Virus record (IMG/VR): IMGVR_UViG_3300037882_002614
Coordinates: 1-33,036 of that record
Reading direction: 5' to 3' (one strand)
Source: a virus
DNA length: 33,036 nucleotides
The first letter of the stretch is position 1; each line of letters starts with the position of its first letter. Under the pieces are notes generated by a model, which had not been told where the DNA came from, made no database searches, and was given only the letters and a program-made list of their open reading frames with translations. Shown here piece after piece: positions 3,491-32,152 of this stretch. The position numbers and the translations under genes were made by a program.

Positions 3491-3885
3491 AAAGTAATGT
3501 CGTTCGTTTAAGCGATTATCAGCCTGCTGCAAATTTAGCAGACGCTAAATGCCGAGCTAATTTGCCTGCTCATTTTGATATTGCGATTTATAAAGGGCTA
3601 GAACGGCTCGTTTTAAAAGTGATGGATGTAAACCCGCTTGTTTATGAGACAACGCAAAAAAAGAATACTGAGCTGATGCGTGTGCGTCCTATCGTTCAAT
3701 ATGCTTTGATTACCTATTATGATTTTACCAATGCACGCATTGCCAAAATATTGAATATTTCGGCGGCTGCTGTGACGCAGGCTGTTGAAAAAGTAGCCGA
3801 TAAGCGCGACGATAGGCATGAGAGCCTTACTAAAATGCACGTTCAAGCTTTAGAGCGGGAAATATTCGGGAGGGTGTTCGCATGA
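3487..3885 (+). CDS. HTH DNA-binding protein resembling DnaA domain IV (possible origin-binding/initiator accessory)
   Basis: MRVRPIVQYALITYYDFTNARIAKILNISAAAVTQAVEKVADKRDD follows the pattern of the DnaA C-terminal HTH. ATGA-coupled on both sides. Confidence 0.45.
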   Translation: MKSNVVRLSDYQPAANLADAKCRANLPAHFDIAIYKGLERLVLKVMDVNPLVYETTQKKNTELMRVRPIVQYALITYYDFTNARIAKILNISAAAVTQAVEKVADKRDDRHESLTKMHVQALEREIFGRVFA

Positions 3886-4973: not shown

Positions 4974-5299
4974 TGATGGAAAATAAAGATATTATTGCCA
5001 CTGCGCAAGTTCTTGTTGATTTTGAATTTGGCTATTCAATCATTTTTGCGGTTGAGGCGCGATGCGTCGCAACAACGAAGAGCTGCGAGGGGCGTGAGCG
5101 TTTTTCAGAATTCTTAATATTTGCTTGCACGGGGAATTCACGCATTTATGCGATTTGGGATTTGGCAAAAAAAATGAAATTTGTTAGCAACCCTGCTTCT
5201 TACAACCAACTCTCAAATTTTGAGAAGCAGGCTTTTTTTGTTTTTGTTGAGCTTATACGCGCTACTTATAAATCAACCATTCTCTATCCTGAAAGATAA
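4970..5299 (+). CDS. Hypothetical 109-aa protein
   Basis: ATGA-coupled to the primase-like gene. No motif recognised. Confidence 0.5.
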   Translation: MMMENKDIIATAQVLVDFEFGYSIIFAVEARCVATTKSCEGRERFSEFLIFACTGNSRIYAIWDLAKKMKFVSNPASYNQLSNFEKQAFFVFVELIRATYKSTILYPER

Positions 5300-5303
5300 A
5301 CTC

Positions 5304-8309: not shown

Positions 8310-8650
8310 GTTTGACCCTCGTTGGTGCAAGTTGCAGGATTTAACCTGATGATGCAATTATTTTTCTACCATAAATTTGAAAATAAAAAAGATTTTTTTT
8401 TATATTTAACTTGTAATTTACCATAAATGTGATAATTTCTGCTTGTTGTCGTAAAATCAACGATAATGCAGGGGTAGTAGCCTGCTTAATTGTCAACATG
8501 TAACACTCACTCCTTATGGTTGGGCGGTCGCGGTGGTGCTTTTGCACCCTTGATTACCTGTTGACAAGGCTACTAACGCTGCGATTCGCTCAACCACCAA
8601 CTTTAGTAGGTTGGTGTTGGGTTATATTAACTCAACAACAGGAGTTCACC

Positions 8651-9736
8651 ATGAGTGACCTAATTACCCATGTGTCATTTGACACAATAAAAATCCCATA
8701 TATCCTTTTAAACAATCAACCTCATGTTTCATTGCGCCCAATAGCCGAAGCTCTTTCTCTAAATTGGAAAAGCCAAAGCGAGAAGTTGGGAAATGATACG
8801 GTTTTAAATTCAGTTGTGGTGCAGAGCGCCTCAACTGGTGCGGATGGAAAGCAATATAAAATGCTCATGCTGCCGCTCAAATATCTCAACGGCTGGCTGT
8901 TTAAAGTCAACCCTGACCGCGTGAAGCCCGAAGCCCGTGACAAGGTGATTGCTTATCAACGCAATTGCTATGATGCGCTTTATGCGCATTTCTTCAATGC
9001 CACGCCTTCGGGGGTGCGTTTACCAAATGATGATTTTACATCGATGGGAACCTCAACCCTTGAAGAGGGCGAAGAAACGGGTGGTTTACTGCCAGCAGGC
9101 AGTTCTTTTTTAGCCCCAACTGAACAGGATAAGTTCGACCAACGCAGCTTTTCACTTAAATTACAGGCAGTTAACGCGGCTTCGCGCGTTTATGGGCAAA
9201 ATGCTGCTCGTAAAATGTGGGTGCAATTAGGTTTGCCTGAAATGCCCATCGATGCGACCTCGCCAGCCAGCCCCCGCGCCCTCGCGCGTCTGCATAAGCT
9301 CTCTCCTTTGCCTGAAAATGACTTGTCGCCTGCGCAAAGAGACGCGAATGAGTGTCTTTCGCATCTTTTGGCGTCAACTGCTTTGCTTAATGATAGCATT
9401 CCGCTTTGCGTTTATCTCATCGACCTCATGAATTCACGCGGTGACGAGGACTTCGATTATCAAGGCGTGATTGATATTGTCAAACGCGCGGGCATTCAAG
9501 TTGATTATGAGCAAAATTGCCTGAAAGTTGCCAATAAAAGCAAATGGCTTGATAGTCTTTACGCTGGAACGCGCTTTGCTGGCAAATATACGCTTTTCCT
9601 GCATAATTTGAAGGGTGTGCGGTGGGGTGGCAACCTTTATGTTGATGGGGCGGCTGTGGCGTGTAAATCTATCCCCATGAGTTACGCTTATGTTGCGGCA
9701 AAAGCCTATGATAACTTACGGAGGGCTTCGCTATGA
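8651..9736 (+). CDS. ant: Antirepressor with P22 Ant-type N-terminal domain (361 aa)
   Basis: MLMLPLKYLNGWLFKVNPDRVKPEARDKVIAYQRNCYDALYAHF matches the P22 Ant N-terminal pattern (LKKLNGWLFSINP...YQ.EC). CAGGAG RBS before ATG 8651. The track start at 8516 is rejected. Confidence 0.8.
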   Translation: MSDLITHVSFDTIKIPYILLNNQPHVSLRPIAEALSLNWKSQSEKLGNDTVLNSVVVQSASTGADGKQYKMLMLPLKYLNGWLFKVNPDRVKPEARDKVIAYQRNCYDALYAHFFNATPSGVRLPNDDFTSMGTSTLEEGEETGGLLPAGSSFLAPTEQDKFDQRSFSLKLQAVNAASRVYGQNAARKMWVQLGLPEMPIDATSPASPRALARLHKLSPLPENDLSPAQRDANECLSHLLASTALLNDSIPLCVYLIDLMNSRGDEDFDYQGVIDIVKRAGIQVDYEQNCLKVANKSKWLDSLYAGTRFAGKYTLFLHNLKGVRWGGNLYVDGAAVACKSIPMSYAYVAAKAYDNLRRASL

Positions 9737-11058: not shown

Positions 11059-11411
11059 AAAAATCATTGTTTTTCAATGTGTTAACACGGCGTAGAAATA
11101 GCAGTCGCACGCTTGACAGTCGCACAAAGCGCAAGTTTCCGTTTAAAATCAACGGGTTAGTATGTCTCATACCACTGATTAGAAATCAGTTGCGTTTCAC
11201 TTATAGGGGGGAGACATCGATAGACCCCCCCGCCCTTTCGCCTGCTGCGGCGCGAAATTTTTCCGCGAGTTTCAAAAATTCCAACCGCGCCCCCCTCCTA
11301 GGGGTGTTGCGTTTGACACACACGGGAGTTTGTCTTTTCAAAACGGCTGAAAAAAAAATCGAAATAAAAGGGGTGAGGGTTAAGGGTTTAGGGGGGGCGG
11401 GTCATGCGTGA
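11055..11411 (+). CDS. Doubtful ORF filling the terS-terL spacer (118 aa)
   Basis: ATGA start overlap, and the end overlaps the terL start. But the product is R/K/S/L-rich with few acidic residues, and the DNA is full of homopolymer runs and hairpins. It may be non-coding. Confidence 0.25.
   Translation: MKKSLFFNVLTRRRNSSRTLDSRTKRKFPFKINGLVCLIPLIRNQLRFTYRGETSIDPPALSPAAARNFSASFKNSNRAPLLGVLRLTHTGVCLFKTAEKKIEIKGVRVKGLGGAGHA
11370..11401 (+). other. Canonical G-quadruplex motif overlapping the terL ribosome-binding site
   Basis: GGGG-tga-GGG-ttaa-GGG-ttta-GGGGGGG-c-GGG ends 2 nt before ATG 11404. Confidence 0.6.
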
Positions 11412-13032
11412 AGATGTTAAGAAGGTTCTCGCTGAACTTGAAAAAGCCTATGATTTGAAATTTCCGCGTCAACAGCTTTATTCGCTTTCGTCTTACACCC
11501 CGCCAGGTCCTGTGTGTGCCGCTTATATTTATTCGGCAGGTCCTGTTGATATTATTTCGGGTCCAGGGGGTTCTGGTAAAACGATTGGGTCAATCTTCAA
11601 AATTATTCGTTACGCGGCGCAGGTCGCACCTGTTTGTAAAGACGGGCGAATTCGCGTGGCTGGTGTTGGCGTTAAGGATAATTACCGAACGCTTTACAGA
11701 ACAATGCTGCGCTCATGGCTGCACTTTTTCCCGCTTGATAAATATCCTGAATTTTCGGGTGGTCAAGATAGACCCGCAAAGCACGTTATCAAGCTTTCGA
11801 CTATTCGCAAAACCAATGTGCCGCCTGAATTTGCAGGCAAGGAATTGCCGATTGATATTAGCATGGACTTTTTCGCTTTGGGTGACCAAACGGTTGAAGA
11901 AGCGTTGAAGGGCTATGAGCCTTCGATTGGTTGGTTAAATGAAGGCGATACCATTTCGCCGCGCGCCATTCCGTTTCTTTATTCAAGAACGGGGCGTTAC
12001 CCGCCGCTTGATGATATTCACGAATATCATAAGCCTTATGAGGGTGTGCCGCGTATGGTTTGCGTTGATTTTAACCCTACCGATATTGACCACCCTTTAT
12101 GGGCTGCCTGTCAAAAGGGAACTTTCCAAGAAAACCTTCCTGAAGGTGCTAAGCGCATGGTGAATTTCTTTCACCAGCCTTCGGGTTTGTCGCCTGAAGG
12201 GGAGAACCGCAAGGGTAAGTCGCTGCAAAGCTATCAAGAAGACGCCGCTAGCATGACAGAAAATGACGTGCAAAGGTTCGTTCATGGGCTTCCTGCTTTT
12301 GCGCAAGATGGCAAGCCTGTCTATGGTGCTGAGTTTGATTTAAGAACACATGTGGCGCAAGAGCCGTTAAAGCCCGTTCCGAACATTCCATTGAACATTG
12401 GCTTTGACCAAGGCTTAAGACCTGCTGCGATATTCTTTCAAGACTTGCCATCGGGTCAAGTTCGTATTTACGATGAGCTTGCGCCTGAAGGTGGCACGGG
12501 TATTGAGCGATTTGTGCGCATGGTTTTATACGTCATGGAAACGCGTTTTAAAGGCTTGCCTAAGGGTAGGTATTATTCTGACCCTGCAGGCTTCTATGGG
12601 GCTGACACAGCCAATTCTGACCTCTCTTGGGCAACAGCGTTAGGCTTTGCGCTTGGCAACCCTGTAGAGCCTGCGCCTTCGCAAGAGCCGCTTGTGCGTC
12701 AAGAGGCGGTGCGCCATGCTTTGAATTACAAAATTGACGCAAAAACGGCGGGTTTAATTATCGACCCTTGTTGCAAGATGCTGATTGCAGGCTTTGCGGC
12801 GCATTATAAATATCGGCGGATAAAATCTGGGCAGGGTGATAGGTTTGAGGATAGACCTGAAAAAAACAAATATTCTAACCCGCATGATGCGCTGCAATAT
12901 GGCTTGCTGGGTGTGCGAGGGGTTAGTTCAGTGGTTAACTTGGCGGCGCGTGGTGGGCGCGGCAATTATTTTGAACCGCCAAATCAACAGGGTAACTCAC
13001 TCAATTTCGATGTTCATTCGTTATGGACGTAA
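11404..13032 (+). CDS. terL: Terminase large subunit (542 aa)
   Basis: Walker A GPGGSGKT near the N-terminus. Size and position immediately before the portal module. Confidence 0.85.
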   Translation: MREDVKKVLAELEKAYDLKFPRQQLYSLSSYTPPGPVCAAYIYSAGPVDIISGPGGSGKTIGSIFKIIRYAAQVAPVCKDGRIRVAGVGVKDNYRTLYRTMLRSWLHFFPLDKYPEFSGGQDRPAKHVIKLSTIRKTNVPPEFAGKELPIDISMDFFALGDQTVEEALKGYEPSIGWLNEGDTISPRAIPFLYSRTGRYPPLDDIHEYHKPYEGVPRMVCVDFNPTDIDHPLWAACQKGTFQENLPEGAKRMVNFFHQPSGLSPEGENRKGKSLQSYQEDAASMTENDVQRFVHGLPAFAQDGKPVYGAEFDLRTHVAQEPLKPVPNIPLNIGFDQGLRPAAIFFQDLPSGQVRIYDELAPEGGTGIERFVRMVLYVMETRFKGLPKGRYYSDPAGFYGADTANSDLSWATALGFALGNPVEPAPSQEPLVRQEAVRHALNYKIDAKTAGLIIDPCCKMLIAGFAAHYKYRRIKSGQGDRFEDRPEKNKYSNPHDALQYGLLGVRGVSSVVNLAARGGRGNYFEPPNQQGNSLNFDVHSLWT

Positions 13033-20890: not shown

Positions 20891-21451
20891 ATGGAATTAA
20901 TGCAAACCGCTTGGTCTTCGCTTACGACAGGGGCAGCAACCGCCGCCGCGCCTGTGGCTGGTGCTGCCACAACCGCCGCGCCATTCTCGCTATTTGGCGG
21001 GGGTGGTTTTGGTTCAACGCTTTTGCAAGGAACGCAAAGCCTCATGGGGGCGATGTCGTCGATAAGGGCGGGTGACGCCAAAGCGAAGGCTTTAGAAGAG
21101 CAAGCAAGACAAGCCGAATTTGAAGCGGGGCAGGAAGCCATTAAAGGCGTTGAACGCCGTGTTTCTTTAAAGCAACAGCTTTATAAAAACTTAGGTGAGC
21201 AATCGGTTTCATATGCCTCTGGTGGGGTTGATTTGTCGTTTGGCACACCGCAACAGGCACAAAATGCAGCGATTGATGATGCTAACCGCGCCTTGACGCT
21301 TGATGGTGGCAACGAAGAGATTAAGCGCAGTGGCTTAAAAACCCGCGCCGCAGCTTATCGTTCGGCGGCTTCCGAAACGCAAGATGGCGCACTATTTGGC
21401 GCAGTGTCGCCTTTGTTTAATTTCGCACTTAGCCTGAATAGAAGGGGTTAA
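20891..21451 (+). CDS. Internal virion protein, gp14-like (186 aa)
   Basis: Ala/Gly-rich hydrophobic N-terminus. Size and position match T7 gp14. Confidence 0.55.
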   Translation: MELMQTAWSSLTTGAATAAAPVAGAATTAAPFSLFGGGGFGSTLLQGTQSLMGAMSSIRAGDAKAKALEEQARQAEFEAGQEAIKGVERRVSLKQQLYKNLGEQSVSYASGGVDLSFGTPQQAQNAAIDDANRALTLDGGNEEIKRSGLKTRAAAYRSAASETQDGALFGAVSPLFNFALSLNRRG

Positions 21452-21453
21452 TA

Positions 21454-24198
21454 ATGAGCAATCGTCGCCCAAAAGATATTGGAATTCCAAGCTTCGCCAC
21501 TAAGGTTGATATTGCGACAGGCAATGAAACGGCGGGGGTGAATATTTCGCAGGCAGGGGCTGGCTATGAAAGCGCGGCTAAGTTTTTTAATGAAAGCGCG
21601 GCTAGGGCTGGTGCTTATGCGGATGAACAAGCGCAATTAGAAGGAACGCGTGCGGGCAAAATTGCGGCTGGTCAAGAGGGTTATAAGCCAACAGAGCAAG
21701 AAATGAGTGATACGTCGCTTTATGGGCGAAGTAAAAGTCAAGCGGCTAGTGCACTTTATGCCCAAAACGTGCAAGCAAGTTTTGGTTCTGATGTTGATAA
21801 GCTTTATGAAACCTCGAAAGACGACCCCGTTAAGTTTCAATCTGGCATGAAGGCTTTAAAGCAACGGTATGAGCAAGACCATCTAGTGCCTGAAATGGGG
21901 GCGGCTTTTAATGCGCATTTCACCTCAACGCTTAGCTCAAAATTAAGGGCGGTGAATGCGGCTAAAGAGGCAAATGACAAGAATGAGAGTGTTGCTTCGC
22001 TTTATCGACAAACAAACGAAAACGACACCAACCGCGCCCGTTTGTTGATGGGCAACCCGAATGACCCCGCAACGATAGCTGCAGCTGAACAAAAAACTGC
22101 AACCAACCTTAATGCGATTGCAGCTCTTCGTGATGCGGGGAATATCACACCGCAGCAAGCTGAAAAAATGATTGCCGATGAAAAGGTAAATGCGCGAACG
22201 CAAATTGTCACCGCCCAAACGGCGCGAATGAATGGTGAAGAAATTCTCACCTATCAACAAAATTTCCGTGACAAGTTTCAAAAAGGTGAATTGAAAGATG
22301 TTGATGCGTCATTATTTAAAACGATTGACGATAGTTTAACGCAAACCGCCAAGCGTCAAGATGTTGCGGGCATGAAGTTGCAAACGGACTTGCGCAATAA
22401 ATGGAACGATGTGATTGAGCGCGCCCGTAATGGCTTGCCAGCAACACAGGCGGAACTTGCCGCGCTCGAGGGCGAAGCGCAAAAGCTAGGCGCGGGTGGC
22501 GTTGATATTATGAACAATTCAAAGAAAAAACTTGAATTCGTTCGGCATTTAAACACGCTATCGCCCAAAGAGGCTGAGGCAGAAATTCAGAAATATGAGC
22601 AATCCGCAAGAGGCTATAATGTTATTGATAAAATTATCGGCGTAGAAAGCGCAGGTAAGGCAAATGCTCAAAACAGCCGCTCTAGCGCGGGTGGTTTAGG
22701 GCAGTTCATTGATAGCACGTGGGTGCAAATGCTTAGAAAACATCGTCCTGACGTAGCTGATGGTAAAAGTGATGCGGCATTAATAGACATGAAATATAAC
22801 GCCTCGTTGTCGCGTGAAATGACAACGCGATATGCAGAAGAAAATGAAAGAGGCTTAAAGAGTTATGGCATAACCCCAACCGCTGGTAATGTGTATTTAG
22901 CGCACTTTGCAGGTTTAGGCGGGGCGCAAAGGCTTCACTCTAATCCTTCTGGCGATGCGGCTTTAGTCATGGCGGGTGGTGATGCTAATAAGGCTGAAGG
23001 CATTAGAGAGGCGAATGGTTTTTTACGAGGAAAATCAGCTCAAGATGTAATTAATTGGGCGGCGCGAAAAATGGGTGGAGCAAGTGGCGATGTTGGCATT
23101 TCTAAACAGCACGCTGAAGACAGTCTTTTCATGCGCAATCATTTAAAATCGCAACAGCAAACGCTTTCAACCGATGCTTTGCAGGCGGCGCGGTCACGCA
23201 ATCTCATTCTTGATATAACGCCATTTTCGGCTTCTGCTCCTGTTGAAACTATTGGGCAACAAATTCAAAGCCGTATCGCGCAGCAAGATGCGGTTGCCAC
23301 ACATTTTAAGCAAGATTTGCAAATTTTGCGCCCGCAAGAGAAAGATGAAATTAACACCGTTCTTAAAAAGGGCGGGGCTGAAGCCTTGCCGATGATGCAG
23401 GCTTTGTTGCAAGGTTCGGGGGCTAAAAACAAAACGCTCGTTAAAGAGCTTTTAGGCGAAGATAATGAAGCTGGCAAAATTGCCATGCTCATGATGGGCG
23501 GGGCAAGTAAACAGACCATTAGTGACATGGCGGAATATGCCAAGGTCAAAGAAGTCGAAAATGTCAAAATGAACAACCCGCCGCCTGAAAAGATGGAAAC
23601 AATCCAAGATGTAATCGGCTTGTCACTTGACCATCACCCCGAAGATAAGGCGCGCATTATTGCGATGGCGGATAGTGTTTACAAGGTTCGGGCGTTTCGC
23701 TTTAATGTTCAAGGAAAAGATAAAGAGGCAACAACACTTTATCGTGACGCCTTGCAAGATGCGATGGGTGCGAACCGCGTTGAAGGGGCGCAGGTTGGCG
23801 GCTTTGTTAAATACAAGGGCTATTCTACCATTGTTCCGCAAGGCGTGATTGCCGATAAATTCACGTCGATTATTTCGTCTTTGACGCAAAAAGACTTACA
23901 GGCAATGCCAATTCCACCGATTGCAGAAAGTGGTTATCCCTATGCAATTTCCGCCATTCATAATGCAACGCCTGTTAAATTTGGGGCTGGTTATCGCTTC
24001 ATTGCAGGTGACCCGCACGCCGCAACGCCGCAATATATTCGGGGGAAGGATGGCAACCCGTTTGTTATGCCGTTTGATGATATGCGTGAAATGCTTGAAC
24101 GGCGTGTGCCTGCGGCTTTTGTTGGCGGCATGATGGCTGAAAGGAAACGCCAGCAAGATTTTATGGATACTTATAAAAATATGAATTCAGCGCGATAG
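21454..24198 (+). CDS. Internal virion/ejection protein with a lytic transglycosylase (SLT) domain (914 aa)
   Basis: IIGVESAGKANAQNSRSSAGGLGQFIDSTWV ... YLAHFAGLGGAQRL. Catalytic Glu codon at 22645-22647. Confidence 0.8.
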   Translation: MSNRRPKDIGIPSFATKVDIATGNETAGVNISQAGAGYESAAKFFNESAARAGAYADEQAQLEGTRAGKIAAGQEGYKPTEQEMSDTSLYGRSKSQAASALYAQNVQASFGSDVDKLYETSKDDPVKFQSGMKALKQRYEQDHLVPEMGAAFNAHFTSTLSSKLRAVNAAKEANDKNESVASLYRQTNENDTNRARLLMGNPNDPATIAAAEQKTATNLNAIAALRDAGNITPQQAEKMIADEKVNARTQIVTAQTARMNGEEILTYQQNFRDKFQKGELKDVDASLFKTIDDSLTQTAKRQDVAGMKLQTDLRNKWNDVIERARNGLPATQAELAALEGEAQKLGAGGVDIMNNSKKKLEFVRHLNTLSPKEAEAEIQKYEQSARGYNVIDKIIGVESAGKANAQNSRSSAGGLGQFIDSTWVQMLRKHRPDVADGKSDAALIDMKYNASLSREMTTRYAEENERGLKSYGITPTAGNVYLAHFAGLGGAQRLHSNPSGDAALVMAGGDANKAEGIREANGFLRGKSAQDVINWAARKMGGASGDVGISKQHAEDSLFMRNHLKSQQQTLSTDALQAARSRNLILDITPFSASAPVETIGQQIQSRIAQQDAVATHFKQDLQILRPQEKDEINTVLKKGGAEALPMMQALLQGSGAKNKTLVKELLGEDNEAGKIAMLMMGGASKQTISDMAEYAKVKEVENVKMNNPPPEKMETIQDVIGLSLDHHPEDKARIIAMADSVYKVRAFRFNVQGKDKEATTLYRDALQDAMGANRVEGAQVGGFVKYKGYSTIVPQGVIADKFTSIISSLTQKDLQAMPIPPIAESGYPYAISAIHNATPVKFGAGYRFIAGDPHAATPQYIRGKDGNPFVMPFDDMREMLERRVPAAFVGGMMAERKRQQDFMDTYKNMNSAR

Positions 24199-24207: not shown

Positions 24208-26637
24208 ATGTTTTTAGATGAACCCACAGAACGCCAGTTCAATTTTGCAAAAGCCGATGATGGCGCGACAGGGCATTGGTTAAAAGACCTTGTGACCCTG
24301 CCTTTTGATTTAGCCAACCCCGAAAAGCGGAAAGCCGTTTCAGAAACATTCAACGCCCATGAACAGCAAACCCGCTTGGTTGATAGCTCAAATTCGCGAA
24401 GAATTGCACAGCTACAAGTGTTTGACACAATGATAGAACAGGTTCAAAAAAACACAGGCGTTAAGCTTGAAAACCCGCTTGTTGGCGCGCCAATGGCAGA
24501 TTATAGCAACTATGACCCCCATCTTGATTATAAAGAAGAATGGGAAAATATTAACAGGCAAGCAAGCGAAAAAGTTGATGGCTTCATTGAACAGATTACG
24601 GCTTTAAAGCAAGCGCACCCTGATAAGTTAGGGAAGCTTGATTTAAACACGGCATTTGAAAGACAAGCGCAACAGCTAGCGTTCAATGCTGATAAATCGG
24701 TTGAAAAAAACGATAATCGCGATGAGATGAATAACTTCATGTGGCTTGGCGGCATGCTTGGCGGTGCTGTTTGGGGTGCGCGTTATGACCCGATAACCTA
24801 TGCGTCTTTGCTCGTAAACCCTTCGGGTGGCGCAGGCAAAACAGCTTTAACCCGCATTGCAAGCGGGGCTTTTAAAGCGGGCGCGATTAATGCCGCCGCC
24901 ACCGTTCCTGTTCAATTTGCTGTTCAAGATTGGCGTGATGAGGCGGCGTTAGAGCATGGTTTTAAGCAGGGTGCGCTTAATGTATTGGCGGCGGGTGCAT
25001 TAGGCGCAGGCATTGGCGGCGCGGCGCAAGGCGTTAAAGAGGTTGCGCCTTCACTACGCCGCGCTTTGAAAAATGTCTATGATGGCAAGGCGACAGCCAG
25101 CGAGACGCTTGATGTTTCGTTAAAGCTTAATCCTGATTTAAGTGAAGGCGATATTTCGTTTTTGAAGGGCATGGCGGAAAAAGAGAAGTTTAACGCCGCT
25201 TTAGAAGGGGGCGATGCAACGTTTAAATCGCCGCTTGTTCAAGAAAAAATTGAACAGCATATAGATTATTTGCAAAGCAAGAAAGCACCGCTTCCTGAAC
25301 CAATTTTAGATTTGCCGCCGCCGCCCAATGAGCCAAACTTGATGCGTTTGATGAGCGAAGAAATCTCTCCTCGTGATGAGGCTTTAAAAATATTCGGGAA
25401 GCCTGTTCATTTTGAAGGCGTTGACGCAGCTTCATTAAAAGCGGATGCCGCAACATTTCAATATAAGGGCGGCGGCGATGCAACGGGTGTTTCAGAACGG
25501 CTTCGCGATGTGCGCCAATGGGACGCAACAGCCTCTGGCAAAGCTTTCTTCTTTGAGGGCAAAGACGGGCAACGCTTTATCGCTGATGGTCACCAAAGGC
25601 TGGGGCTAGCCTCGCGTTTGCTGAATGAGAAGCTTGAAGATAAAATCAATATTGATGGGTATGTTTTTAAAGAAGCAGATGGCTGGTTGCCGCGTGAAGT
25701 TCGGGTGCTTGCAGCTAAAAAGAACATTCAAGAAGGCAGTGGAAGCGCGATTGACACGGCGCGTATTTTAAAGGAAATGCCTGAATTGCTTGATAGCACT
25801 GTTGGGCAATCGTCACAGACCATTAAAACGGGCGTGTGGCTTTCAAAGCTTGACGACGAGGCTTTAGGTTTTGTGGTCAATGGCATTGTGCCTGAAAGGC
25901 AAGCGGCTTTTGTGGCGCAAGCAACCAATAACCCGCAAGAGCAAATGGCGATTATGAAGGTTCTCGCTGAATTGAAGCCTGAAACAGAACGCCAAGCAGG
26001 CATTTTAGTGCGCGATGTTTTGCAATCGGGTTTTGCCAAAGAAGAGCAATTTGATATGTTCGGTTCGCGCCTTATGGCTTCCGCCCTCTATGAAGAACGC
26101 ATGAAGGTTTTAGATGATGTGTTGCGTGAATTGGCAAGCGATAAAAAGATTTTTGGCTTGCTCAATCGTGAAGCCGCTAAAATTGAAAGTGCAGGCAATG
26201 TTTTAAACGAGGCGGTTAATAATCAATCTGCCATGACAGCAGGGCAAGTGCGTGAGTTAATCGAACGATTGGCGCAATCGAAAAGCCCTGTCTCAGATAT
26301 GCTGAATGACTATGCGCTAGCTGTGCAACAAGGCATGAAGGTGAAAGAGGCGTCGCGTCAATTTATCGATAAATTCACCAAAGACTTTGAAGAAAACGGC
26401 TTGGCATTTTTGAATAAAGAAGAGCCGCGTTTAAAGCCATTTGAGGCGGGTGAACCTTCAAGTAAACAGTTAGCCCGTAAAGCTGATGAGGTTATGCCGA
26501 ATGAGGAGCAAACGCTTTCGCTATTCGATGAACCAACCCCACAAACCTCGCCACTTGAAACATTGCCAAAACTGGCTAAAGATACGCCTGTTGAAGTGAT
26601 TGCCAGTGATTTAGCGAGAGCCTGCAAAGCGATATAA
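24208..26637 (+). CDS. Internal virion/ejection protein carrying a ParB/Srx-like domain (809 aa)
   Basis: Position in the core-protein block. Gly/Ala-rich membrane-type segments in the N-terminal third. Central motif GKDGQRFIADGHQRLGLASRL (DGHQR at 25584-25598). Confidence 0.6.
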   Translation: MFLDEPTERQFNFAKADDGATGHWLKDLVTLPFDLANPEKRKAVSETFNAHEQQTRLVDSSNSRRIAQLQVFDTMIEQVQKNTGVKLENPLVGAPMADYSNYDPHLDYKEEWENINRQASEKVDGFIEQITALKQAHPDKLGKLDLNTAFERQAQQLAFNADKSVEKNDNRDEMNNFMWLGGMLGGAVWGARYDPITYASLLVNPSGGAGKTALTRIASGAFKAGAINAAATVPVQFAVQDWRDEAALEHGFKQGALNVLAAGALGAGIGGAAQGVKEVAPSLRRALKNVYDGKATASETLDVSLKLNPDLSEGDISFLKGMAEKEKFNAALEGGDATFKSPLVQEKIEQHIDYLQSKKAPLPEPILDLPPPPNEPNLMRLMSEEISPRDEALKIFGKPVHFEGVDAASLKADAATFQYKGGGDATGVSERLRDVRQWDATASGKAFFFEGKDGQRFIADGHQRLGLASRLLNEKLEDKINIDGYVFKEADGWLPREVRVLAAKKNIQEGSGSAIDTARILKEMPELLDSTVGQSSQTIKTGVWLSKLDDEALGFVVNGIVPERQAAFVAQATNNPQEQMAIMKVLAELKPETERQAGILVRDVLQSGFAKEEQFDMFGSRLMASALYEERMKVLDDVLRELASDKKIFGLLNREAAKIESAGNVLNEAVNNQSAMTAGQVRELIERLAQSKSPVSDMLNDYALAVQQGMKVKEASRQFIDKFTKDFEENGLAFLNKEEPRLKPFEAGEPSSKQLARKADEVMPNEEQTLSLFDEPTPQTSPLETLPKLAKDTPVEVIASDLARACKAI

Positions 26638-26647: not shown

Positions 26648-29182
26648 ATGAGCATTAAAGATTGTCTTGATAGCGCGGTGGCGCAAGGCGTGGTTGATGA
26701 AAAAACCGCGAATAAAATGTATGAAGATTTTCAAGAATTTTACGCCCAAAAGCGCCTTAATATGGGTGACACCGAAGCTTTAGGCTCTGCAAAAGAAGCG
26801 TGGGTTAAAAAATATGATGCTGAAAAAATTGAAAGTCAACGCCGCGCCGCCTTAACGCGGGGCGCTATCCAACGGGTTAATGACCATTTAAGCAATTATA
26901 CCAACCCATGGGGCAAACATGATATTTATGAAGCCTCTATGCGGTTGCTTGAAAATTACGGTTATTCTGAAACCTCTAGCGTTGTTGGTAAAACTAAAAC
27001 ATTGATTGGGTTAGCGCATAGCGAAATTTCAAACGCCTTGTTAGCGCATCGCCGCAAGTTCTTTTCAATCTCGGGCAAACGTGAAGACCAGGACGGCATT
27101 GAAAATATCGTCAAAGAATTGTTTAGCCATGATAGCGGTGACGCTGTCGCCAAAGAAGGTGCTAAATCAGTAGCGGAAGTCTTTGAAACCTTGCGCCAAC
27201 GTTATAATGTTGCGGGCGGCGCGATTGGAAAGCTGGAAAGCTATGGCTTGCCGCAAAAGCATGACGCTGTTAAACTGCTGGCACTTAAGGGCGATATTGC
27301 CGAAAAACGGGCGCAATGGAAAGAGTTTATTAAACCGTTGCTCAACAAAGAGCGCATGGTTGACCCCTTAACCAATGAGCCATTAACGGCGGCGCGTTTT
27401 GAACAAGTGTTAGATTATTCGTTTGATAGCATCACCACAGGCGGCATGAATAAAGTGACACCGTCTTTGCAAGATTTGCAAAAGGGTTCGCTGGCAACGC
27501 AACGGGCAGAACACCGCTTTTTGCATTTTAAAGATTACGAAGGTTGGAAAGCCTATAGCGACAAATTCGGTTCGGGTGATGCTTGGGCGGATATTTCTAG
27601 CCATATCAATTCGATGGCGGGTGATATAGCTGCAATGGAAGTGTTAGGACCTAACCCTGATGCAATGATAAATTATTTAAAATCAAGCGTTCAAAGCCAA
27701 TGGGCGTTAGCGATGAAAGGGCAGGCGTCAAAATTCAACCTTGACCCTAGCGAGATTAATGTTGATGCTCATTCACATTTCTTTTCTAAAACCGCAAAAC
27801 TTGAAAGCCTGTGGCAATCAATCCGTGGGCGTGAAATGGCAAATGCCAATTTAGCGCAAGGCTTCGCAACGGCGCGTAATTTTATCACTTCGGCAAAATT
27901 GGGCGGTGCAGCGGTTCTAGCAGGAACGACAGACCCTTTCGTTGATGCAAGTGCGCGTAAAATTTCGGGCTTGCCTGTCACAAAGGCTTTTGGCGTGATT
28001 TTTCAAACATTTAATAAAGGTTTAAAAGAAGATGCAGTTCGCGCTGGCATCATATTAGATGATGCGGTGAATATGTTGCATGAGGGTGGGCAACAGTCTT
28101 TAAAGCTGATGGGCAGTCAATGGTCAAAAATCGCGGCTGACCGCACGGTTCAATGGTCGTTTTTAGAGCCGATGACACAAGCCCGCCGCCATGTTTTTGC
28201 GATGGATTTTATGGCGGTTGCGGCTGATCATAAAAAGCTTGAATGGGGTGCGTTAAAAACGCAAAACCCCTATTATGCGCGAACCCTAGAGGGGTATGGC
28301 TTTAAACAAGGTCATTGGGACGCATTAAGAAGTGCTGAAGTATTTTCAACTGACCGCGCTTCATCGGGCATTCTTCGTCCTGTCGATGTTCGGAAATCGT
28401 CAAACATTTATGCGGTTGAAGCCAGTGAAAAGTTTTTAGAGGCAATCTTGCAGCAAACGGAACGGGCTGTGCCAACAGGAACACACCGTTCGCGCTCATT
28501 GTTAACAGGAAGCACAGCACGCGGAACTGTTCTAGGTGAAATGGTCGAAAGTGGCTTGCAGTTTAAATCATATGGCTTGTCACTTACCATGTTGCAATTA
28601 GAAGCCATTCAAAATGAGTTTGCGCGTGGCGGTGTTAACGGCGCAGTCTATGCGGGGTCACTTTTATTGTCGCTTACGCTTGGGGGTGCTTTGGCAATGC
28701 AGCTTAAAAATGTGATTAATGGCAAAGATATGCAAGACATAACTGACCATAAATTTTTAATTGCCGCCATGAAAACTGGCGGCGGCTTAGGCATTCTTGG
28801 TGATTATCTGTTTGATGATTGGTCGCGCTTTGGGCATAGCTTGCCTGTTACCCTGATGGGTCCAACAGCAGGCGTTGCTAATGATTTGCTAAAGCTCACA
28901 CTTGGCAATACAATGAAAGCGGCTGATGGTAAAAAAACGTATTTTAAACGTGATAGCGTTGATTTTTTAAGTAAAAATACGCCCGTTGCTTCAACTTTAT
29001 TTTATTCTAAGCTTGCGATGCAGCGCATGGTTTTTGACCAAATGCAACATTTAGCAGACCCTGATAGCCATCGCCGCTTTGCCGATAGGGCGCGTAAAAT
29101 GAGAAAAGAAACAGGTCAAGAATTTTGGTGGCAACCCGGTGATGCGTTTCCAACGCAAGCCCCAAATTATTCACCAAAATAA
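26648..29182 (+). CDS. Internal virion/ejection protein (844 aa)
   Basis: Last large gene before the tailspike. Hydrophobic segments GAVYAGSLLLSLTLGGALAMQL and TGGGLGILGDYLF. Confidence 0.6.
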   Translation: MSIKDCLDSAVAQGVVDEKTANKMYEDFQEFYAQKRLNMGDTEALGSAKEAWVKKYDAEKIESQRRAALTRGAIQRVNDHLSNYTNPWGKHDIYEASMRLLENYGYSETSSVVGKTKTLIGLAHSEISNALLAHRRKFFSISGKREDQDGIENIVKELFSHDSGDAVAKEGAKSVAEVFETLRQRYNVAGGAIGKLESYGLPQKHDAVKLLALKGDIAEKRAQWKEFIKPLLNKERMVDPLTNEPLTAARFEQVLDYSFDSITTGGMNKVTPSLQDLQKGSLATQRAEHRFLHFKDYEGWKAYSDKFGSGDAWADISSHINSMAGDIAAMEVLGPNPDAMINYLKSSVQSQWALAMKGQASKFNLDPSEINVDAHSHFFSKTAKLESLWQSIRGREMANANLAQGFATARNFITSAKLGGAAVLAGTTDPFVDASARKISGLPVTKAFGVIFQTFNKGLKEDAVRAGIILDDAVNMLHEGGQQSLKLMGSQWSKIAADRTVQWSFLEPMTQARRHVFAMDFMAVAADHKKLEWGALKTQNPYYARTLEGYGFKQGHWDALRSAEVFSTDRASSGILRPVDVRKSSNIYAVEASEKFLEAILQQTERAVPTGTHRSRSLLTGSTARGTVLGEMVESGLQFKSYGLSLTMLQLEAIQNEFARGGVNGAVYAGSLLLSLTLGGALAMQLKNVINGKDMQDITDHKFLIAAMKTGGGLGILGDYLFDDWSRFGHSLPVTLMGPTAGVANDLLKLTLGNTMKAADGKKTYFKRDSVDFLSKNTPVASTLFYSKLAMQRMVFDQMQHLADPDSHRRFADRARKMRKETGQEFWWQPGDAFPTQAPNYSPK

Positions 29183-29236: not shown

Positions 29237-32152
29237 ATGTCTATTTTAAACCCCATTAACCGTGATTATCGTTCTCGTGATATTATTTGCGCGCCAAATC
29301 AAACGGTGTTTAGCTTGCCCGTTTATGTTTACGACGTGCAAGATATTGTGGTTTATAAAAAGCAAGGCAGTCCCTCATTCTTTTCAACCGTCGCTTCTTC
29401 AGCTTATACTGTAGCGATTAACCCGATAACTCGTCATGCAACTATCACCTTTATCGTCTCACCTTATTTGGCAGTTGTGCCAGTTGTTATTCGGATAAAA
29501 AGCGCAAGGCTTGCTTCTAGAGTGACAGACGTTACGCGCAATCAAGTTTTAGTGGCGAAATCGCTAGAAAAAGAATTAGATGTTCAAACAACGACAGACC
29601 AAGAGCTACGCCGTGATATTGACGAATTTGCGCTTGCCGCAAGTGAAATTTTTGAGGCGCGTGATGAGGCTGCAGCAAGTGCATCTGAAGCTGCAGCAAG
29701 CGCATTAGCGGCTGCCGCTAGCGCAGATGAGACGGAAGGTTATGCTCAAATTGTTATTACAAATCAGCCTATCGCTCCTGTTCCATTTTTTACTGTAATA
29801 AGTTCATTGACCTTTCCAGTTGGTTTGCAAACCATAAGAACCAATGGCTATTATGCTGTCAATGATGGCGGTGGGGCAACTTATAAGCGCCTTTCTGCAA
29901 TCCCTTCACCTTTAAAACCGTGGCACGTTTTAAGCAATGGTGGCGCGGTTGCTTGGCAAATGCTCGAACGAGAATTTATCCCTCAGCAATTTGGAGCGAA
30001 AGGTGACGGCGTGACTGACGATACTGCTGTTTTCAATGCAGTTCCTCCAGAGTTGCTGGGCAGTCGCATTGATCTGAAAGGCTTTGCCTACAAAGTCGCA
30101 GCTATTCCAAAAAATGCCCGCTATTTCAACGGCGATTTTGTCACGCCAGGTGGCGCTGTAAGCTTGCGCCGAAATCCGCTGGACAACCCAATCGACGGAA
30201 ATTCGATTGTTGCGATGGGCGATGGTCTACAGCACTACTGGTGTTTTGACGCTATCACTTTGCTTAACAAACAAGTGATGGCGCTGGTTAAGCCAGCACA
30301 CCGCCATGACCGCAGCGCTGGCAGCCCGATCTTTGCCATGTACAGCGAAGACTCTGGTGTGACATTTAGCAAGCAAGTGACTGTCCACAGCTACCCTGAT
30401 GCTGATATTGCCGACTTAAAAATCGTCGATATGGGCGATCGGGTCGGTGTCTTGGTCACTGTGATTCCATTCAACACGGCGCTGTCACCACGCACTGATT
30501 TCTGGTACACCACAGAACTGATTAGCACTTGGACGATTCTTGAAAACGTCGCACCCTATGTTTTTGTATATGGTCCATCTCAGCCATTAGTAAGCGGCAC
30601 GCCAGGTCAGTCATACATTTGCTACGGTTACGCGAGTAATGAAAGTTATTCTCTTGTCACAAACGACAAGGGTCTGACATGGACACGTCAGACAATGTCA
30701 GGCTTGCTGGGTGTTGAACCGTATGTTGTGCGGGTCGGCACAGAAAACAAGTGGATTGCTTTTGTGCGCGGTGCAGCGAATCTGCGCATTAGCACGTCCG
30801 TCGATCAGGTCAACTGGTCTGCACTAGTAGATACTGGCGTTCCGCTTGGTAATCACCCTGTTCAAGCAATCGTTGATCGTGGTCGGCTATTTGTGTACCT
30901 TTTTGCGCGTGACTTTACGCCTGCAACAATTGAATTTGAGAACCGCTGCACTGTCATCGAAGACGATCCGCAGTATGTTTTTGCAAACAAGATGTTTAAA
31001 AACAAAGCTGGTCGGACGGCGCTAAAAGGTGCTAACCGTAGTCTTGGTTATATGACGATCATTCCTGATGGTCGCGCTGAAGATGAGTTTATCTACTTTG
31101 TAAACGCTTCTGAGACTGACAACAGCACGACACAGCCGTCAGTTTCGCATGTGTATGTTGGGCATACAGCGCGTCACATGATGCTGCCACGTTCGCTGCA
31201 CGCAGGTGAGAATTTGCTACACAATCCCACGTTTGATTTCTGGGATCGTGGTGACAGTTTTCCCGCAACAGGCATTAGCACAATCTCGACTGCAAACCGC
31301 TGGCGGTTCAACCCGTCAGGCAGTGTGGCGAATGTGGAAAAAGTCAGTCTGACAATGAACCAATCGAAGTTGCTGCCATTCCGTGGTCAGTACGGCTACA
31401 AGATCACAGCGACGGCTGAAGACTTTATCGGGCTTGAGCAGCGACACTTTAACCGTGACTTGTTTTTTAAGGTGCAGGAAAATACTATTCTTTTCCAGAT
31501 CTGGGGGATGGGCAATCCACCAAACACGTTGCGTTTCCAGTGTGTCCGAGATGCAGACAACGGTGATGCGCCGGTCAGTGCTTCGCAGTTAGTCGTGACC
31601 ACAACGCAACCCGCGAACGGGATCTGGAAAGCCACCGCCCGACTTGTCGTTGTGCCAATCTTTAGTACGCTTGCTGCGCCTAAGACCGTCGGTGCAAACC
31701 CGAGTGTGACTTTTAGCTTGTCGAGCTTCCTAAGCACAGCGATGGACTTTACGATTCTGGGCATGAAAGCCGAGCTTGGGCAAGAATTTACGCCGTTTGC
31801 GCCGACTGACGTCATTTCTGAGCGCGTAAAGTGTGCAAACCATATGCAAGTGTTTAGCTATGATGCGTTCACCGCGATTGCGAACGGCTATGTGCTGGAC
31901 ACTGTGACCGGCGAATACTTTTTCGAATATCCCGAAATGGTTAAAACCCCGTCGGTCCAGTTCAGCGCGATTGGTAGTAATTTGACGGTGTATCCTCAGA
32001 ATCAAGACGTTACAGCGCTGACGGCATCGTCGGTTCGACGGTCATCAGGCATCTTGATTGCGACGAAATCGAGCAGTGTGCTGGCGTTCGCGCCTAGTTT
32101 TCTGCGTGTAAAAAGCGGCGGATCGTTCAAGATTTATCTTGAATGTGTGTGA
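29237..32152 (+). CDS. Tailspike/tail fibre: gp17-like N-terminus, Ala-rich coil, glycosidase-like C-terminal region with Asp-box motifs (971 aa)
   Basis: The N-terminal ~130 aa follow the T7 gp17 adaptor pattern. AASASEAAASALAAAASA coil. FGAKGDGVTDDTAVFNA (29990-30040). Asp boxes SEDSGVTFSK (about 30344), TNDKGLTWTR (about 30659) and the degenerate STSVDQVNWS (about 30791). Confidence 0.8.
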   Translation: MSILNPINRDYRSRDIICAPNQTVFSLPVYVYDVQDIVVYKKQGSPSFFSTVASSAYTVAINPITRHATITFIVSPYLAVVPVVIRIKSARLASRVTDVTRNQVLVAKSLEKELDVQTTTDQELRRDIDEFALAASEIFEARDEAAASASEAAASALAAAASADETEGYAQIVITNQPIAPVPFFTVISSLTFPVGLQTIRTNGYYAVNDGGGATYKRLSAIPSPLKPWHVLSNGGAVAWQMLEREFIPQQFGAKGDGVTDDTAVFNAVPPELLGSRIDLKGFAYKVAAIPKNARYFNGDFVTPGGAVSLRRNPLDNPIDGNSIVAMGDGLQHYWCFDAITLLNKQVMALVKPAHRHDRSAGSPIFAMYSEDSGVTFSKQVTVHSYPDADIADLKIVDMGDRVGVLVTVIPFNTALSPRTDFWYTTELISTWTILENVAPYVFVYGPSQPLVSGTPGQSYICYGYASNESYSLVTNDKGLTWTRQTMSGLLGVEPYVVRVGTENKWIAFVRGAANLRISTSVDQVNWSALVDTGVPLGNHPVQAIVDRGRLFVYLFARDFTPATIEFENRCTVIEDDPQYVFANKMFKNKAGRTALKGANRSLGYMTIIPDGRAEDEFIYFVNASETDNSTTQPSVSHVYVGHTARHMMLPRSLHAGENLLHNPTFDFWDRGDSFPATGISTISTANRWRFNPSGSVANVEKVSLTMNQSKLLPFRGQYGYKITATAEDFIGLEQRHFNRDLFFKVQENTILFQIWGMGNPPNTLRFQCVRDADNGDAPVSASQLVVTTTQPANGIWKATARLVVVPIFSTLAAPKTVGANPSVTFSLSSFLSTAMDFTILGMKAELGQEFTPFAPTDVISERVKCANHMQVFSYDAFTAIANGYVLDTVTGEYFFEYPEMVKTPSVQFSAIGSNLTVYPQNQDVTALTASSVRRSSGILIATKSSSVLAFAPSFLRVKSGGSFKIYLECV

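Follow-up and report, generated by a model that had tools for sequence, protein, structure and literature searches.

ParB-superfamily domains of the DdrB-like type have been predicted in injected phage proteins associated with the virion (Iyer, Burroughs, Anand, de Souza and Aravind, 2017; PMC5512222). The gene studied here resembles this system, represented by P1 DdrB (PF18763), in having a ParB/Srx-superfamily domain in large phage proteins among late or virion genes, proteins for which packaging and delivery are predicted or known. The accompanying domains are also alike (ART, PBECR, RelA/SpoT, SNF2, MTase, LPD, and fusions to lysozyme or transglycosylase), and both have a Q-x-R/K box and a G-x-x-R box, which in P1 DdrB read LQPRDR and SGNGR. 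The motif differs, however, being GNGR there and DGHQR here with no sequence-level match, and a second, HTH-derived helical domain is kept here, as in canonical ParB. In P1, a myovirus, the Dar proteins are internal to the head, whereas the present gene occupies a podophage core-protein slot.

The CTP-dependent clamps ParB/Spo0J, Noc and KorB (7nfu, 6sdk, 6t1f, 7bnk and 8qa9) are the best structural matches over both domains and have their three sequence boxes in the same order. Identity to the present protein is only 14-19%, however. In the latter, H takes the place of a glutamate in box II and K that of another in box III, the HTH-like domain is acidic and has lost its first helix, and the module lies inside an 809-aa protein of the virion block. 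A ParB C-terminal dimerisation domain, ParA and parS are not apparent. The Srx, Osa, DndB/DGQHR and GmrS/DUF262 families have the same core fold and a D/G-G-x-x-R loop that runs into a helix, but none was matched by HMM in Pfam, NCBIfam or PADLOC, and in DGQHR proteins the order of H and Q is reversed. Srx structures were found by Foldseek at E values of 7e-3 to 1e-1, weaker than ParB, Noc and KorB.

Gene order and layout of the 809-aa protein

The window, that is, the whole 33,036-nt stretch of viral DNA that was analysed, has a T7-type gene order of portal, scaffold, capsid and tail tubes, followed by the gene of interest. This gene lies between the tail tubular and tailspike genes and adjoins that of a transglycosylase-bearing protein; it starts 9 nt past the upstream stop and ends 10 nt ahead of the next start. 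The features are as follows.

20891-21451, plus strand: small ORF of 186 aa in the small-core-protein position, assigned by position alone
21454-24198, plus strand: protein of 914 aa that includes an SLT/lytic transglycosylase segment (aa ~385-580), from PHROG and Pfam
24208-26637, plus strand: ORF of 809 aa whose product is a putative internal virion protein of the core/ejection slot, with a ParB-like module at its centre
24718-25107, plus strand: Gly/Ala-rich, moderately hydrophobic helical region, aa 171-300, from composition and model
25390-25746, plus strand: predicted ParB/Srx-fold N-terminal-type domain, aa 395-513, from AF2, Foldseek and, from aa 446, hhalign
25456-25467, plus strand: box I-like F-Q-Y-K, aa 417-420, counterpart of ParB QPR by element order
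25585-25599, plus strand: box II-like D-G-H-Q-R, aa 460-464, aligned by hhalign to ParB G-E-R-R
25717-25734, plus strand: box III-like K-K-N-I-Q-E, aa 504-509, aligned by hhalign to ParB L-E-N-L-Q-R
25747-26052, plus strand: degenerate helical domain resembling the HTH DNA-binding domain of ParB/Noc/KorB, aa 514-615, from Foldseek and hhalign
26053-26427, plus strand: C-terminal helical region co-conserved with the ParB module, aa 616-740, from tblastn, PHROG and model
26515-26637, plus strand: conserved tail at the C-terminus with a Cys close to its end, aa 770-809 (...LFDEP...VIASDLARACKAI), and stop codon, from family conservation
26648-29182, plus strand: 844-aa virion structural or putative internal virion protein, from phrog_684

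The original prediction had set the gene among those of core or ejection-type proteins, and this is mostly right. The upstream 914-aa protein matched the phrog_4067 transglycosylase (E 2e-22) and, weakly, the Pfam SLT model (E 0.01), and the downstream 844-aa protein matched phrog_684, 'virion structural protein', at E 2e-139. Homologues of the latter were found in 120 phage records, some labelled 'virion structural protein' or 'putative internal virion protein', and the tailspike gene comes after it. The 186-aa upstream ORF had no match in Pfam or NCBIfam. The same gene order is found in L005, Dunaliella viridis virus SI2 and P-SCSP1c.

The 809-aa protein, identical to family member P0001, matched phrog_10691 (E 7e-45), phrog_342 (E 1e-11) and phrog_21. 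Of these, phrog_342, annotated as 'internal virion protein with endolysin domain', is the sole link to characterised internal virion proteins. When homology to characterised core proteins such as T7 gp14, gp15 and gp16 was sought, the only high-probability matches in the PDB by Foldseek were members of the ParB superfamily, and the N-terminal 380 aa had no high-probability match there when the full model was used. Megablast of the gene against isolated phages gave no match, and tblastn found only three lineages. On the minus strand, two ORFs lie within the gene (25223-25528 and 25728-26039), but nothing supports them and they are regarded as mechanical.

Gly-rich segments of membrane type had been proposed for the N-terminal third. 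A Gly/Ala-rich region does exist: aa 171-300 are 35% Gly+Ala and helical in the predicted model, and G186 is invariant across the family. Its hydrophobicity is moderate: the highest Kyte-Doolittle 19-residue mean, 1.41, is reached near aa 264 and falls short of the value usually required of a transmembrane segment, and a transmembrane reading was not accepted on this ground. At the other end, tblastn and PHROG matches extend the conserved block to about aa 730-750, with model helices over 628-736. C806 is conserved in at least 90% of the family, and a Cys occurs within the last 12 residues in 134 of the 174 long family proteins, including those with inserted toxin domains.

The ParB-like module and its pocket

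A ParB/sulfiredoxin-like domain had been predicted at nt 25360-25800, which corresponds to aa 385-531. SLKADAATFQYK begins at aa 409 (nt 25432), within ORF 24208-26637, and the quoted peptide and the DGHQR motif are present verbatim, both inside that range. The proposed comparison with PF02195 and DGQHR/DndB models by HMMER came out negative: even with E values of up to 10 allowed, neither ParBc (PF02195) nor ddrB-ParB nor DndB was matched in Pfam, whether the query was the full-length protein, the isolated domain or any of 16 family members, and the NCBIfam and PADLOC models gave no ParB or DGQHR/DndB-type match. The only Pfam signal over the DGHQR area was DUF1015, sub-threshold at E 0.17-0.3. 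PDB sequence searches with the protein and with the family profile returned nothing relevant. Membership of the DdrB-like ParB family was rejected, as the PF18763 model, which matched P1 DdrB at 2e-39 as a control, missed the protein and hhalign against P1 DdrB gave a probability of 0.2. Similarity to ParB is visible only at the level of structure and of profile-profile comparison.

At that level the predicted fold was borne out. The AF2 model of aa 388-615 had a pLDDT of 88.8 and a pTM of 0.81, with pLDDT mostly above 90 over aa 395-513. Strands at 398-406, 446-450, 456-460 and 481-488 and helices at 462-473 and 495-508 are modelled, and the AlphaFold models contain the proposed order of ParB/Srx elements, namely a strand, Q-x-K, a short helix, two strands and DGHQR leading into a helix. 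When the domain model was searched against the PDB with Foldseek, the top 50 matches all belonged to the ParB superfamily (Noc, ParB, KorB, Spo0J, pNOB8 ParB, PadC, sulfiredoxin and the ParB-fold protein Atu1540), 18 matches having E values of 1e-3 or less; the full-length model agreed. The best match was Noc 7nfu (E 5e-6, TM ~0.5, ~218 columns), and alignments of about 215 columns covered both the ParB N-terminal domain and the helical DNA-binding-like domain. TM-scores were modest, ~0.5 at best with rmsd of 6-13 Å, partly because the two subdomains differ in orientation; identity was 14-19%. BFVD matches included phage ParB/Spo0J and 'DdrB-like domain-containing' proteins.

Profile comparison pointed the same way. 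The profile of 179 family sequences aligned by hhalign with ParB over 146-147 columns in the expected register (P 0.0016-0.0027), pairing GHQR with GERR and KN with EN; the score of 28.5 compares with 13.2±2.3 (maximum 19.9) for 150 column shuffles. The P-value is modest because the ParB profile was shallow (Neff ~1.8), which in turn reflects that the search seeded with B. subtilis Spo0J yielded only Bacillus sequences at 80% identity or more. Together, the models and alignments indicate that aa 395-615 are a highly divergent ParB-superfamily module, consisting of a ParB/Srx-fold domain and a degenerate HTH-derived helical domain.

That chromosomal and plasmid partition proteins head the structural matches could suggest a conventional partition ParB or a plasmid or prophage maintenance protein, or else the DGxxR motif might have arisen by chance. 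Both are hardly credible. The module is part of an 809-aa protein encoded within the block of structural genes, the protein has no ParBc, HTH or ParB C-terminal-domain match in Pfam, and no ParA gene was seen among the larger ORFs of the window. Chance is contradicted by conservation of the motif in 179 of 179 relatives.

Conservation in the 179-sequence alignment is concentrated in the equivalents of the three ParB boxes, a sign that selection acts on the pocket. Q418, K420, G427, W438, D460, Q463, R464, L467, G492 and N506 are invariant, and G461 and H462 (99%) and K505 (97%) nearly so. The DGHQR box is paired by hhalign with GERR of B. subtilis, M. xanthus and T. thermophilus ParB, such that R464, the active-site arginine of GxxR, falls on the last R. 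The pairing of FQYK with QPR follows from element order after strand 1, this stretch lying outside the hhalign alignment. Relative to ParB, Q418, G461, R464 and N506 are kept, whereas K420 and H462 replace R and E, and Q463 and K505 likewise replace R and E.

Such a pattern bears on whether the fold is a purely structural remnant, a block of the core or ejection channel or a docking platform for effectors that neither binds a ligand nor catalyses. This would fit the degenerate HTH, the dissimilarity at HMM level to active ParB families and the constant association of the module with conserved flanking helical regions and the C-terminal tail. We consider it unlikely, since the invariant polar and charged residues map exactly onto the three nucleotide-pocket motifs of ParB, and residues of this kind (Q418, K420, D460, H462, Q463, R464, K505 and N506) typify a ligand or catalytic site, not a packing interface.

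The helical domain is more altered. Here hhalign matches WLSKLDDEALGFVVNGIVPERQAA with LRLLTLPENIQQLIAEGTLSMGHGR of ParB, and both the alignment and the AF2 model have a Pro-containing loop in place of the first HTH helix. Net charge of aa 514-615 is -5, with a family mean of -3.2 for the HTH-like half, and the recognition-helix region carries -1 as compared to +3 in B. subtilis ParB. These properties weaken the DNA-clamp idea of the original prediction. One form that a clamp could take is that of an NTP-gated clamp like ParB, Noc or KorB: two copies would dimerise through nucleotide-bound N-terminal domains and C-terminal helices and close round the incoming DNA end to protect, anchor or draw it in. 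Consistent with a clamp, the best structural matches are CTP-dependent clamps over both N-terminal and DNA-binding domains, the box I Q, the box II R and the box III N are invariant, with the box II G at 99%, and the helical region after the module could, on the model, dimerise. In T7, moreover, each virion contains several copies of the core proteins. Besides the lost helix and acidic charge, however, H462 and K505 stand where boxes II and III of ParB have acidic residues, and an unsystematic look identified no parS-like site or ParA partner; a clamp seems quite unlikely. In ParB CTPases the glutamates of GERR and ENLQR have been implicated in the hydrolysis of CTP, and because these positions are occupied by H462 and K505, hydrolysis of the ParB type is not assured.

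A large family of relatives with inserted effectors

A word-indexed homologue search with the domain profile gave only short fragments lacking Pfam annotation. An exhaustive search of representatives found the domain in at least 3,606 clusters (50% identity) at E of 1e-3 or less, with 1,146 representatives at 1e-30 or less. They come mostly from Alphaproteobacteria, with Melainabacteria, Bacteroidota and other MAGs also represented. Homologues carry ART-PolyVal, Zeta toxin, PBECR3, RelA_SpoT, SNF2, MTase, GNAT, LPD1, LPD23 and LPD38 domains, in keeping with the likeness to polyvalent virion proteins that had been proposed; the window protein itself has a single recognisable effector-type domain, whereas polyvalent proteins in the sense of Iyer et al. 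(2017) combine at least two in one phage or mobile-element polypeptide, often together with LPD domains. The Ruegeria phage 45A6 relative is a giant protein of 3,912 aa, and that of Prochlorococcus phage P-SCSP1c, with 2,571 aa, lies in the core-protein slot.

The conserved chassis of this very large family is a Gly/Ala-rich helical N-terminus, the ParB module and a Cys-containing tail. Into it, related phages and prophages insert cytoplasm-acting effectors (ADP-ribosyltransferase, Zeta kinase, RNase, RelA/SpoT and helicase/methylase), placed ahead of the conserved C-terminal tail and not simply appended. The logic of a conserved virion chassis, swappable effectors and delivery before gene expression is shared with MuF toxins, P1 DarB and polyvalent proteins of the N4 vRNAP type (concept in PMC5512222), from which the family differs in the make-up of its chassis and in the site of effector insertion.

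Two gene fusions link the family to neighbouring virion genes. In member P0040 an SLT domain is fused in, with the same SLT motif as the upstream 914-aa protein, and in P0103 homologues of the 809-aa protein and of the downstream virion protein form a single polypeptide (E 2e-122). A homologue bearing a Zeta toxin sits in the same synteny; for the Stappia homologue no record of the encoding contig was found.

These observations can be set against the reading that the protein is no virion component, being instead a late cytoplasmic factor that acts in genome processing or packaging, or on host DNA, and is merely encoded in the structural module. ParB-like nucleases can act on DNA inside the producing cell, and no proteomic data for family members were found in the literature searched. 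We nevertheless regard this as very unlikely: the gene keeps a conserved slot, with tail tube B and the SLT protein on one side and a virion structural protein of wide conservation on the other, fusions to an SLT domain and to the downstream virion protein occur among relatives, and the toxin domains of relatives would harm the producing cell unless sequestered and exported. The P-SCSP1 cryo-EM and genome papers contain no core-protein structure or proteomics and merely speculate that the corresponding genes encode internal virion proteins.

Proposed role and significance

From the synteny, from the fused genes and from the toxin domains of relatives, which act in the cytoplasm, we infer that the 809-aa protein is packaged and ejected; the ParB pocket probably has an activity of nucleotide-binding or nuclease type. 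The reading that we favour, by somewhat better than an even chance, is that of a packaged and ejected podophage core-slot protein whose divergent ParB pocket acts as an NTPase and/or non-specific DNA-nicking enzyme. The protein would be packaged in the capsid and exit via the tail alongside the other core proteins, with at least its C-terminal two-thirds reaching the host cytoplasm at DNA entry. There the invariant pocket (Q418/K420, D460-G-H-Q-R464 and K505/N506) would bind nucleotide, and the protein would then act as the NTPase and/or nicking enzyme, an early effector of the sort that has been suggested for DdrB-like ParB domains in polyvalent proteins.

A rather improbable variant is a virion-delivered, nucleotide-gated switch of ParB type acting on the phage's own incoming genome. 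It would close on the leading DNA end leaving the ejection channel and either shield that end from exonucleases and defence nucleases or ratchet the DNA in. If true, the ParB-CTPase clamp principle would have a second use, outside partition, with the clamp entering ready-made together with the DNA.

The combination had been thought uncharacterised. Searches for literature on ParB-like domains in internal virion or ejection proteins found nothing specific to these, and the family stands outside the PF18763 model; ParB-superfamily domains in injected phage proteins had, however, already been predicted (PMC5512222). The family is a variant on the ParB-in-polyvalent-protein theme of Iyer et al. 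(2017) that is not covered by the corresponding Pfam model.

The module shared by at least 3,606 clusters of phage and prophage proteins is recognised by no standard HMM library, and the family represents an annotation blind spot; among its members are giant proteins of Prochlorococcus phage P-SCSP1 and Ruegeria phage 45A6 that carry no annotation. Recognition of the module gives a functional lead on an unannotated core-slot gene of abundant marine and soil podophages and identifies a reusable chassis of a polyvalent effector-delivery family. The FQYK, DGHQR and KN pocket is strictly conserved, yet the two acidic residues linked to CTP hydrolysis are missing from it, which makes it a natural test of ParB-fold function outside partition. 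With a profile made from the family, thousands of virion-module genes now called 'hypothetical' would gain an annotation, and toxin cargo inserted in them would be flagged.

Fold of the DGHQR-containing module

The original prediction placed a ParB/sulfiredoxin-like DGHQR domain at 25360-25800, within an ejected internal-virion protein. The peptide it quoted is present verbatim in the ORF at 24208-26637 (+), which encodes 809 aa; SLKADAATFQYK starts at aa 409 (nt 25432) and DGHQR occupies aa 460-464 (nt 25585-25599). The predicted range corresponds to aa 385-531 and spans the N-terminal half of a two-part module (aa 395-615), in which a ParB/Srx-fold domain is followed by an HTH-like helical half. 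Across 179 aligned family members, Q418, K420, G427, W438, D460, Q463, R464, L467, G492 and N506 were invariant, and G461 and H462 (99%) and K505 (97%) nearly so. Judged by this conservation, DGHQR is not a chance match.

The full-protein AlphaFold2 model, built from a 25-sequence alignment, was confident across aa 390-610, and a model of aa 388-615 alone reached a mean pLDDT of 88.8 and a pTM of 0.81. When the domain model was compared with the PDB by Foldseek, the top 50 matches were all ParB-superfamily structures, 18 of them at E <= 1e-3; the full-length model gave the same picture. The best match was Noc (7nfu; E 5e-6, TM about 0.5, 218 columns), and others in the top 50 included M. xanthus, B. 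subtilis and C. crescentus ParB, KorB, pNOB8 ParB, Spo0J, PadC, sulfiredoxin and the ParB-fold protein Atu1540 (2hwj). Alignments of ~215 columns extended beyond the Srx-like core, across the N-terminal domain of ParB, Noc and KorB that binds nucleotide and the helical DNA-binding domain next to it. TM-scores peaked for open or apo conformations, and rmsd to the remaining structures was large because the inter-domain angle differs.

A 179-sequence module profile was also aligned by hhalign with B. subtilis, M. xanthus and T. thermophilus ParB (sequences verified against the PDB), giving P 0.0016-0.0027 over 146-147 columns. The score of 28.5 compares with 13.2±2.3 (maximum 19.9) in 150 column-shuffled controls and 17.8 for a reversed alignment. 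The register was that expected from the fold, with D-G-H-Q-R on (A)-G-E-R-R, K-K-N-I-Q-E on L-E-N-L-Q-R, and WLSKLDDEALGFVVNGIVPERQAA of the target paired with LRLLTLPENIQQLIAEGTLSMGHGR of ParB. From the order of elements, F-Q-Y-K after strand 1, outside the hhalign alignment, would be the counterpart of ParB Q-P-R. The predicted ParB/Srx fold was thus borne out by structure comparison and by profile-profile alignment, and on these two grounds we assign it to the module. Canonical two-domain ParB, Noc and KorB are the nearest structural relatives of the modeled domain. Despite this kinship, it is scarcely credible that the protein is an ordinary partition ParB or the motif fortuitous, the latter being opposed by conservation of DGHQR across the 179 aligned members.

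Library searches did not recover this relationship. HMMER searches with PF02195 and DGQHR/DndB models, which the original prediction had proposed as a check, found no match, and Pfam searches at E up to 10 with the whole protein, the isolated domain and 16 family members returned no ParB-clan match; the sole Pfam overlap with the DGHQR area was a sub-threshold DUF1015 (E 0.17-0.3). NCBIfam and PADLOC searches returned nothing, and phmmer and hmmsearch against all PDB sequences nothing relevant. The ddrB-ParB model in the Pfam copy searched matched P1 DdrB at 2e-39 and left the target unmatched; hhalign of the target family against DdrB was negative.

Family architecture and distribution

When 1.84 billion representative proteins were searched exhaustively with an HMM of aa 395-560, 3,606 module clusters were recovered at E <= 1e-3 and 1,146 at E <= 1e-30. 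Protein lengths ranged from 330 to about 3,000 aa, with the domain mostly near residue 400 and in others near residue 40. Full-length homologues are about 800 aa long and 24-38% identical. Common to them are a helical N-terminal region, a stretch rich in Gly and Ala, the ParB-like module together with the helices after it, and a short C-terminal tail. In many ENA metagenome gene calls (P0046-P0071), some on contigs of 20-48 kb, the module occurs in short ORFs (100-280 aa), which may be fragmented gene calls (e.g. recoded stop codons, frameshifts) or true stand-alone forms.

Scanning a single genome for each species with the pattern DGHQR[LR][GA]LA identified 64 loci, mostly in Alphaproteobacteria (Hyphomicrobiales, Stappia, Aureimonas, Brevundimonas, Sphingomonadales, Rhodobacterales), with the remainder in Gastranaerophilales/Melainabacteria, Flavobacteriaceae, Dehalococcoidia, Elusimicrobia and actinomycete MAGs. 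Several target homologues sit in bacterial chromosomes, and several pattern loci, on Mb-scale contigs, are likely prophages. As the nearest loci (48-51% identical) belong to Hyphomicrobiales, Stappia and Bradyrhizobium, an alphaproteobacterial host is suggested for this phage.

Longer relatives, denoted by P-numbers, carry additional domains.

Additional domains in longer relatives of the 809-aa protein
ART-PolyVal: P0015, P0098, P0103
Zeta toxin: P0027, P0043
PBECR3 RNase: P0032
RelA/SpoT: P0042, P0196
SNF2 helicase: P0196
LPD1 and LPD23: P0098, P0182, P0127

Two giant module proteins stand unannotated in published phages: a 3,912-aa protein of Ruegeria phage 45A6 (L001:6808-18546), in which SNF2 helicase, methyltransferase, GNAT and LPD38 domains form a DarB-like combination, and a 2,571-aa protein of Prochlorococcus phage P-SCSP1c (L004:7717-15432). 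The additional domains in these relatives are hallmarks of the polyvalent proteins of Iyer et al. 2017 (PMC5512222), in line with the likeness drawn in the original prediction. Their point of insertion lies ahead of the Cys-containing C-terminal tail, so that the tail is kept:

26515-26637 (+), aa 770-809: C-terminal tail with LFD..., an amphipathic helix, and A/S-C-K/R-D/E in the last 12 residues

A near-terminal Cys was present in 134 of 174 long family proteins, and the tail may serve as an anchor for assembly or packaging, or be a place where the protein is processed or cross-linked.

Genomic setting and putative virion location

Every large ORF in the window is encoded on the + strand, and GC skew stays positive from end to end. 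The structural module is of T7 type, comprising portal (PF12236), a T7-scaffold-like protein, capsid, and tail tubular proteins A and B, after which come a 186-aa ORF and the following genes:

21454-24198 (+): 914-aa protein with a lytic transglycosylase segment in mid-protein (aa ~385-580), not terminal
24208-26637 (+): the 809-aa target, putative internal virion protein
26648-29182 (+): 844-aa protein, phrog_684 'virion structural protein'
29237-32152: 971-aa tailspike candidate, with an endosialidase N-terminal extension (PF12218, E 3e-8) and a weak BNR/sialidase-like signal

The match of the 914-aa protein to phrog_4067 was clear (E 2e-22) and that to Pfam SLT marginal (E 0.01). The domains of the tailspike candidate suggest a polysaccharide-degrading receptor-binding protein. 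Elsewhere in the window are a DUF7146/Toprim primase with a 658-aa P-loop protein after it (3882-7157) and a protein with a P22-type antirepressor N-terminal domain (8516-9736; PF10547, E 4.5e-36). Neither an RNA polymerase nor a DNA polymerase turned up in the scanned ORFs. With several target homologues in bacterial chromosomes, this may be a temperate or polymerase-less phage, not a classical T7-like virus. A 542-aa ORF directly upstream of the portal gene (11404-13032) had no Pfam or PHROG match; its position would suit a divergent large terminase. A 445-aa ORF at 932-2269 has a Gly_rich_2 domain (PF21722) and tail-fibre-type PHROG matches, and its location at the opposite contig end from the tailspike fits a genome that is circularly permuted or nearly complete.

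Homologues of the 844-aa protein occur in 120 isolated-phage records, including epsilon15-like Salmonella and E. coli phages, Vibrio VP2-like phages, Burkholderia BcepC6B and pelagiphages, and some are labelled 'putative internal virion protein'. The target, in contrast, was found in just three isolate lineages, and its gene therefore looks like a variable cargo slot adjoining a conserved core protein. The same gene order surrounds a Zeta-toxin-bearing homologue on a 36-kb soil contig and recurs in 'Dunaliella viridis virus SI2' and in P-SCSP1c; for the related P-SCSP1a, assignment of g20/g21 as internal virion proteins is its authors' guess only (PMC9860041). In P0040 the SLT motif of the neighbour (GAGQFIESTW...) is fused in. 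In P0103 (2,995 aa) a homologue of the target, with its ParB-like module at aa 417-578 and an ART-PolyVal segment, is joined to a homologue of the entire 844-aa protein (aa 2145-2987; 32% identity, E 2e-122), which points to a functional link between the two adjacent genes.

The inserted toxins (UNAG kinase-type Zeta, NAD-dependent ART, RNase, (p)ppGpp-synthetase-type) need cytoplasmic substrates, and we infer that at least the C-terminal part of toxin-bearing relatives enters the host cytoplasm. Two results count against virion location: the N-terminal 380 aa matched no solved core protein in the PDB, and of the Gly-rich, membrane-type segments originally described, the Gly/Ala-rich region is present but only moderately hydrophobic. 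With the gene order and fusions on the other side, we regard a late cytoplasmic, non-virion protein as unlikely.

Nucleotide pocket and proposed function

In ParB CTPases the residues that line the CTP site are box I Q, box II G and last R, and box III N, and the glutamates of GERR and ENLQR are implicated in hydrolysis. The lining set is invariant in the target family, whereas H462 and K505 occupy the positions of the two glutamates. Residue conservation thus makes a nucleotide-binding pocket plausible, but ParB-type CTP hydrolysis is not assured. The HTH-like half also departs from ParB: a Pro-containing loop takes the place of the first HTH helix, net charge is -5 in the window protein (family mean -3.2), and the recognition-helix region carries -1, compared with +3 in B. 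subtilis ParB. Glutamate loss, the missing helix and acidity argue against sequence-specific, ParB-like DNA binding. A true nucleotide-gated clamp on the incoming genome, to which the fold and lining residues would lend themselves, is consequently quite unlikely. A structural remnant that neither binds ligand nor catalyzes, which the degenerate HTH-like half would fit, we consider doubtful given the invariant pocket.

We lean, somewhat, toward a protein packaged in the core/ejection slot, whose conserved ParB-type pocket would bind nucleotide and which would, once it reaches the cell, work as an NTPase, a non-specific nicking enzyme or both. A matching role, as NTP-regulated DNases or NTP sensors early in infection, has been proposed for DdrB-like ParB domains, another ParB family in packaged phage proteins (PMC5512222). 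ParB-superfamily domains in capsid-delivered proteins are thus already published, and the finding is not categorically new; the original suggestion that the combination was uncharacterized holds for the family itself, as no paper describing it was found in the literature on ParB-like domains in internal virion or ejection proteins. What is new is a very large family outside Pfam, NCBIfam and PADLOC coverage, with a module structurally nearer to canonical two-domain ParB, Noc and KorB than to DdrB-like ParB. The module occupies the core-protein slot of podophages with T7-type structural modules, including an abundant cyanophage lineage, and the best-supported reading is that related phages deliver toxin cargo on this chassis.
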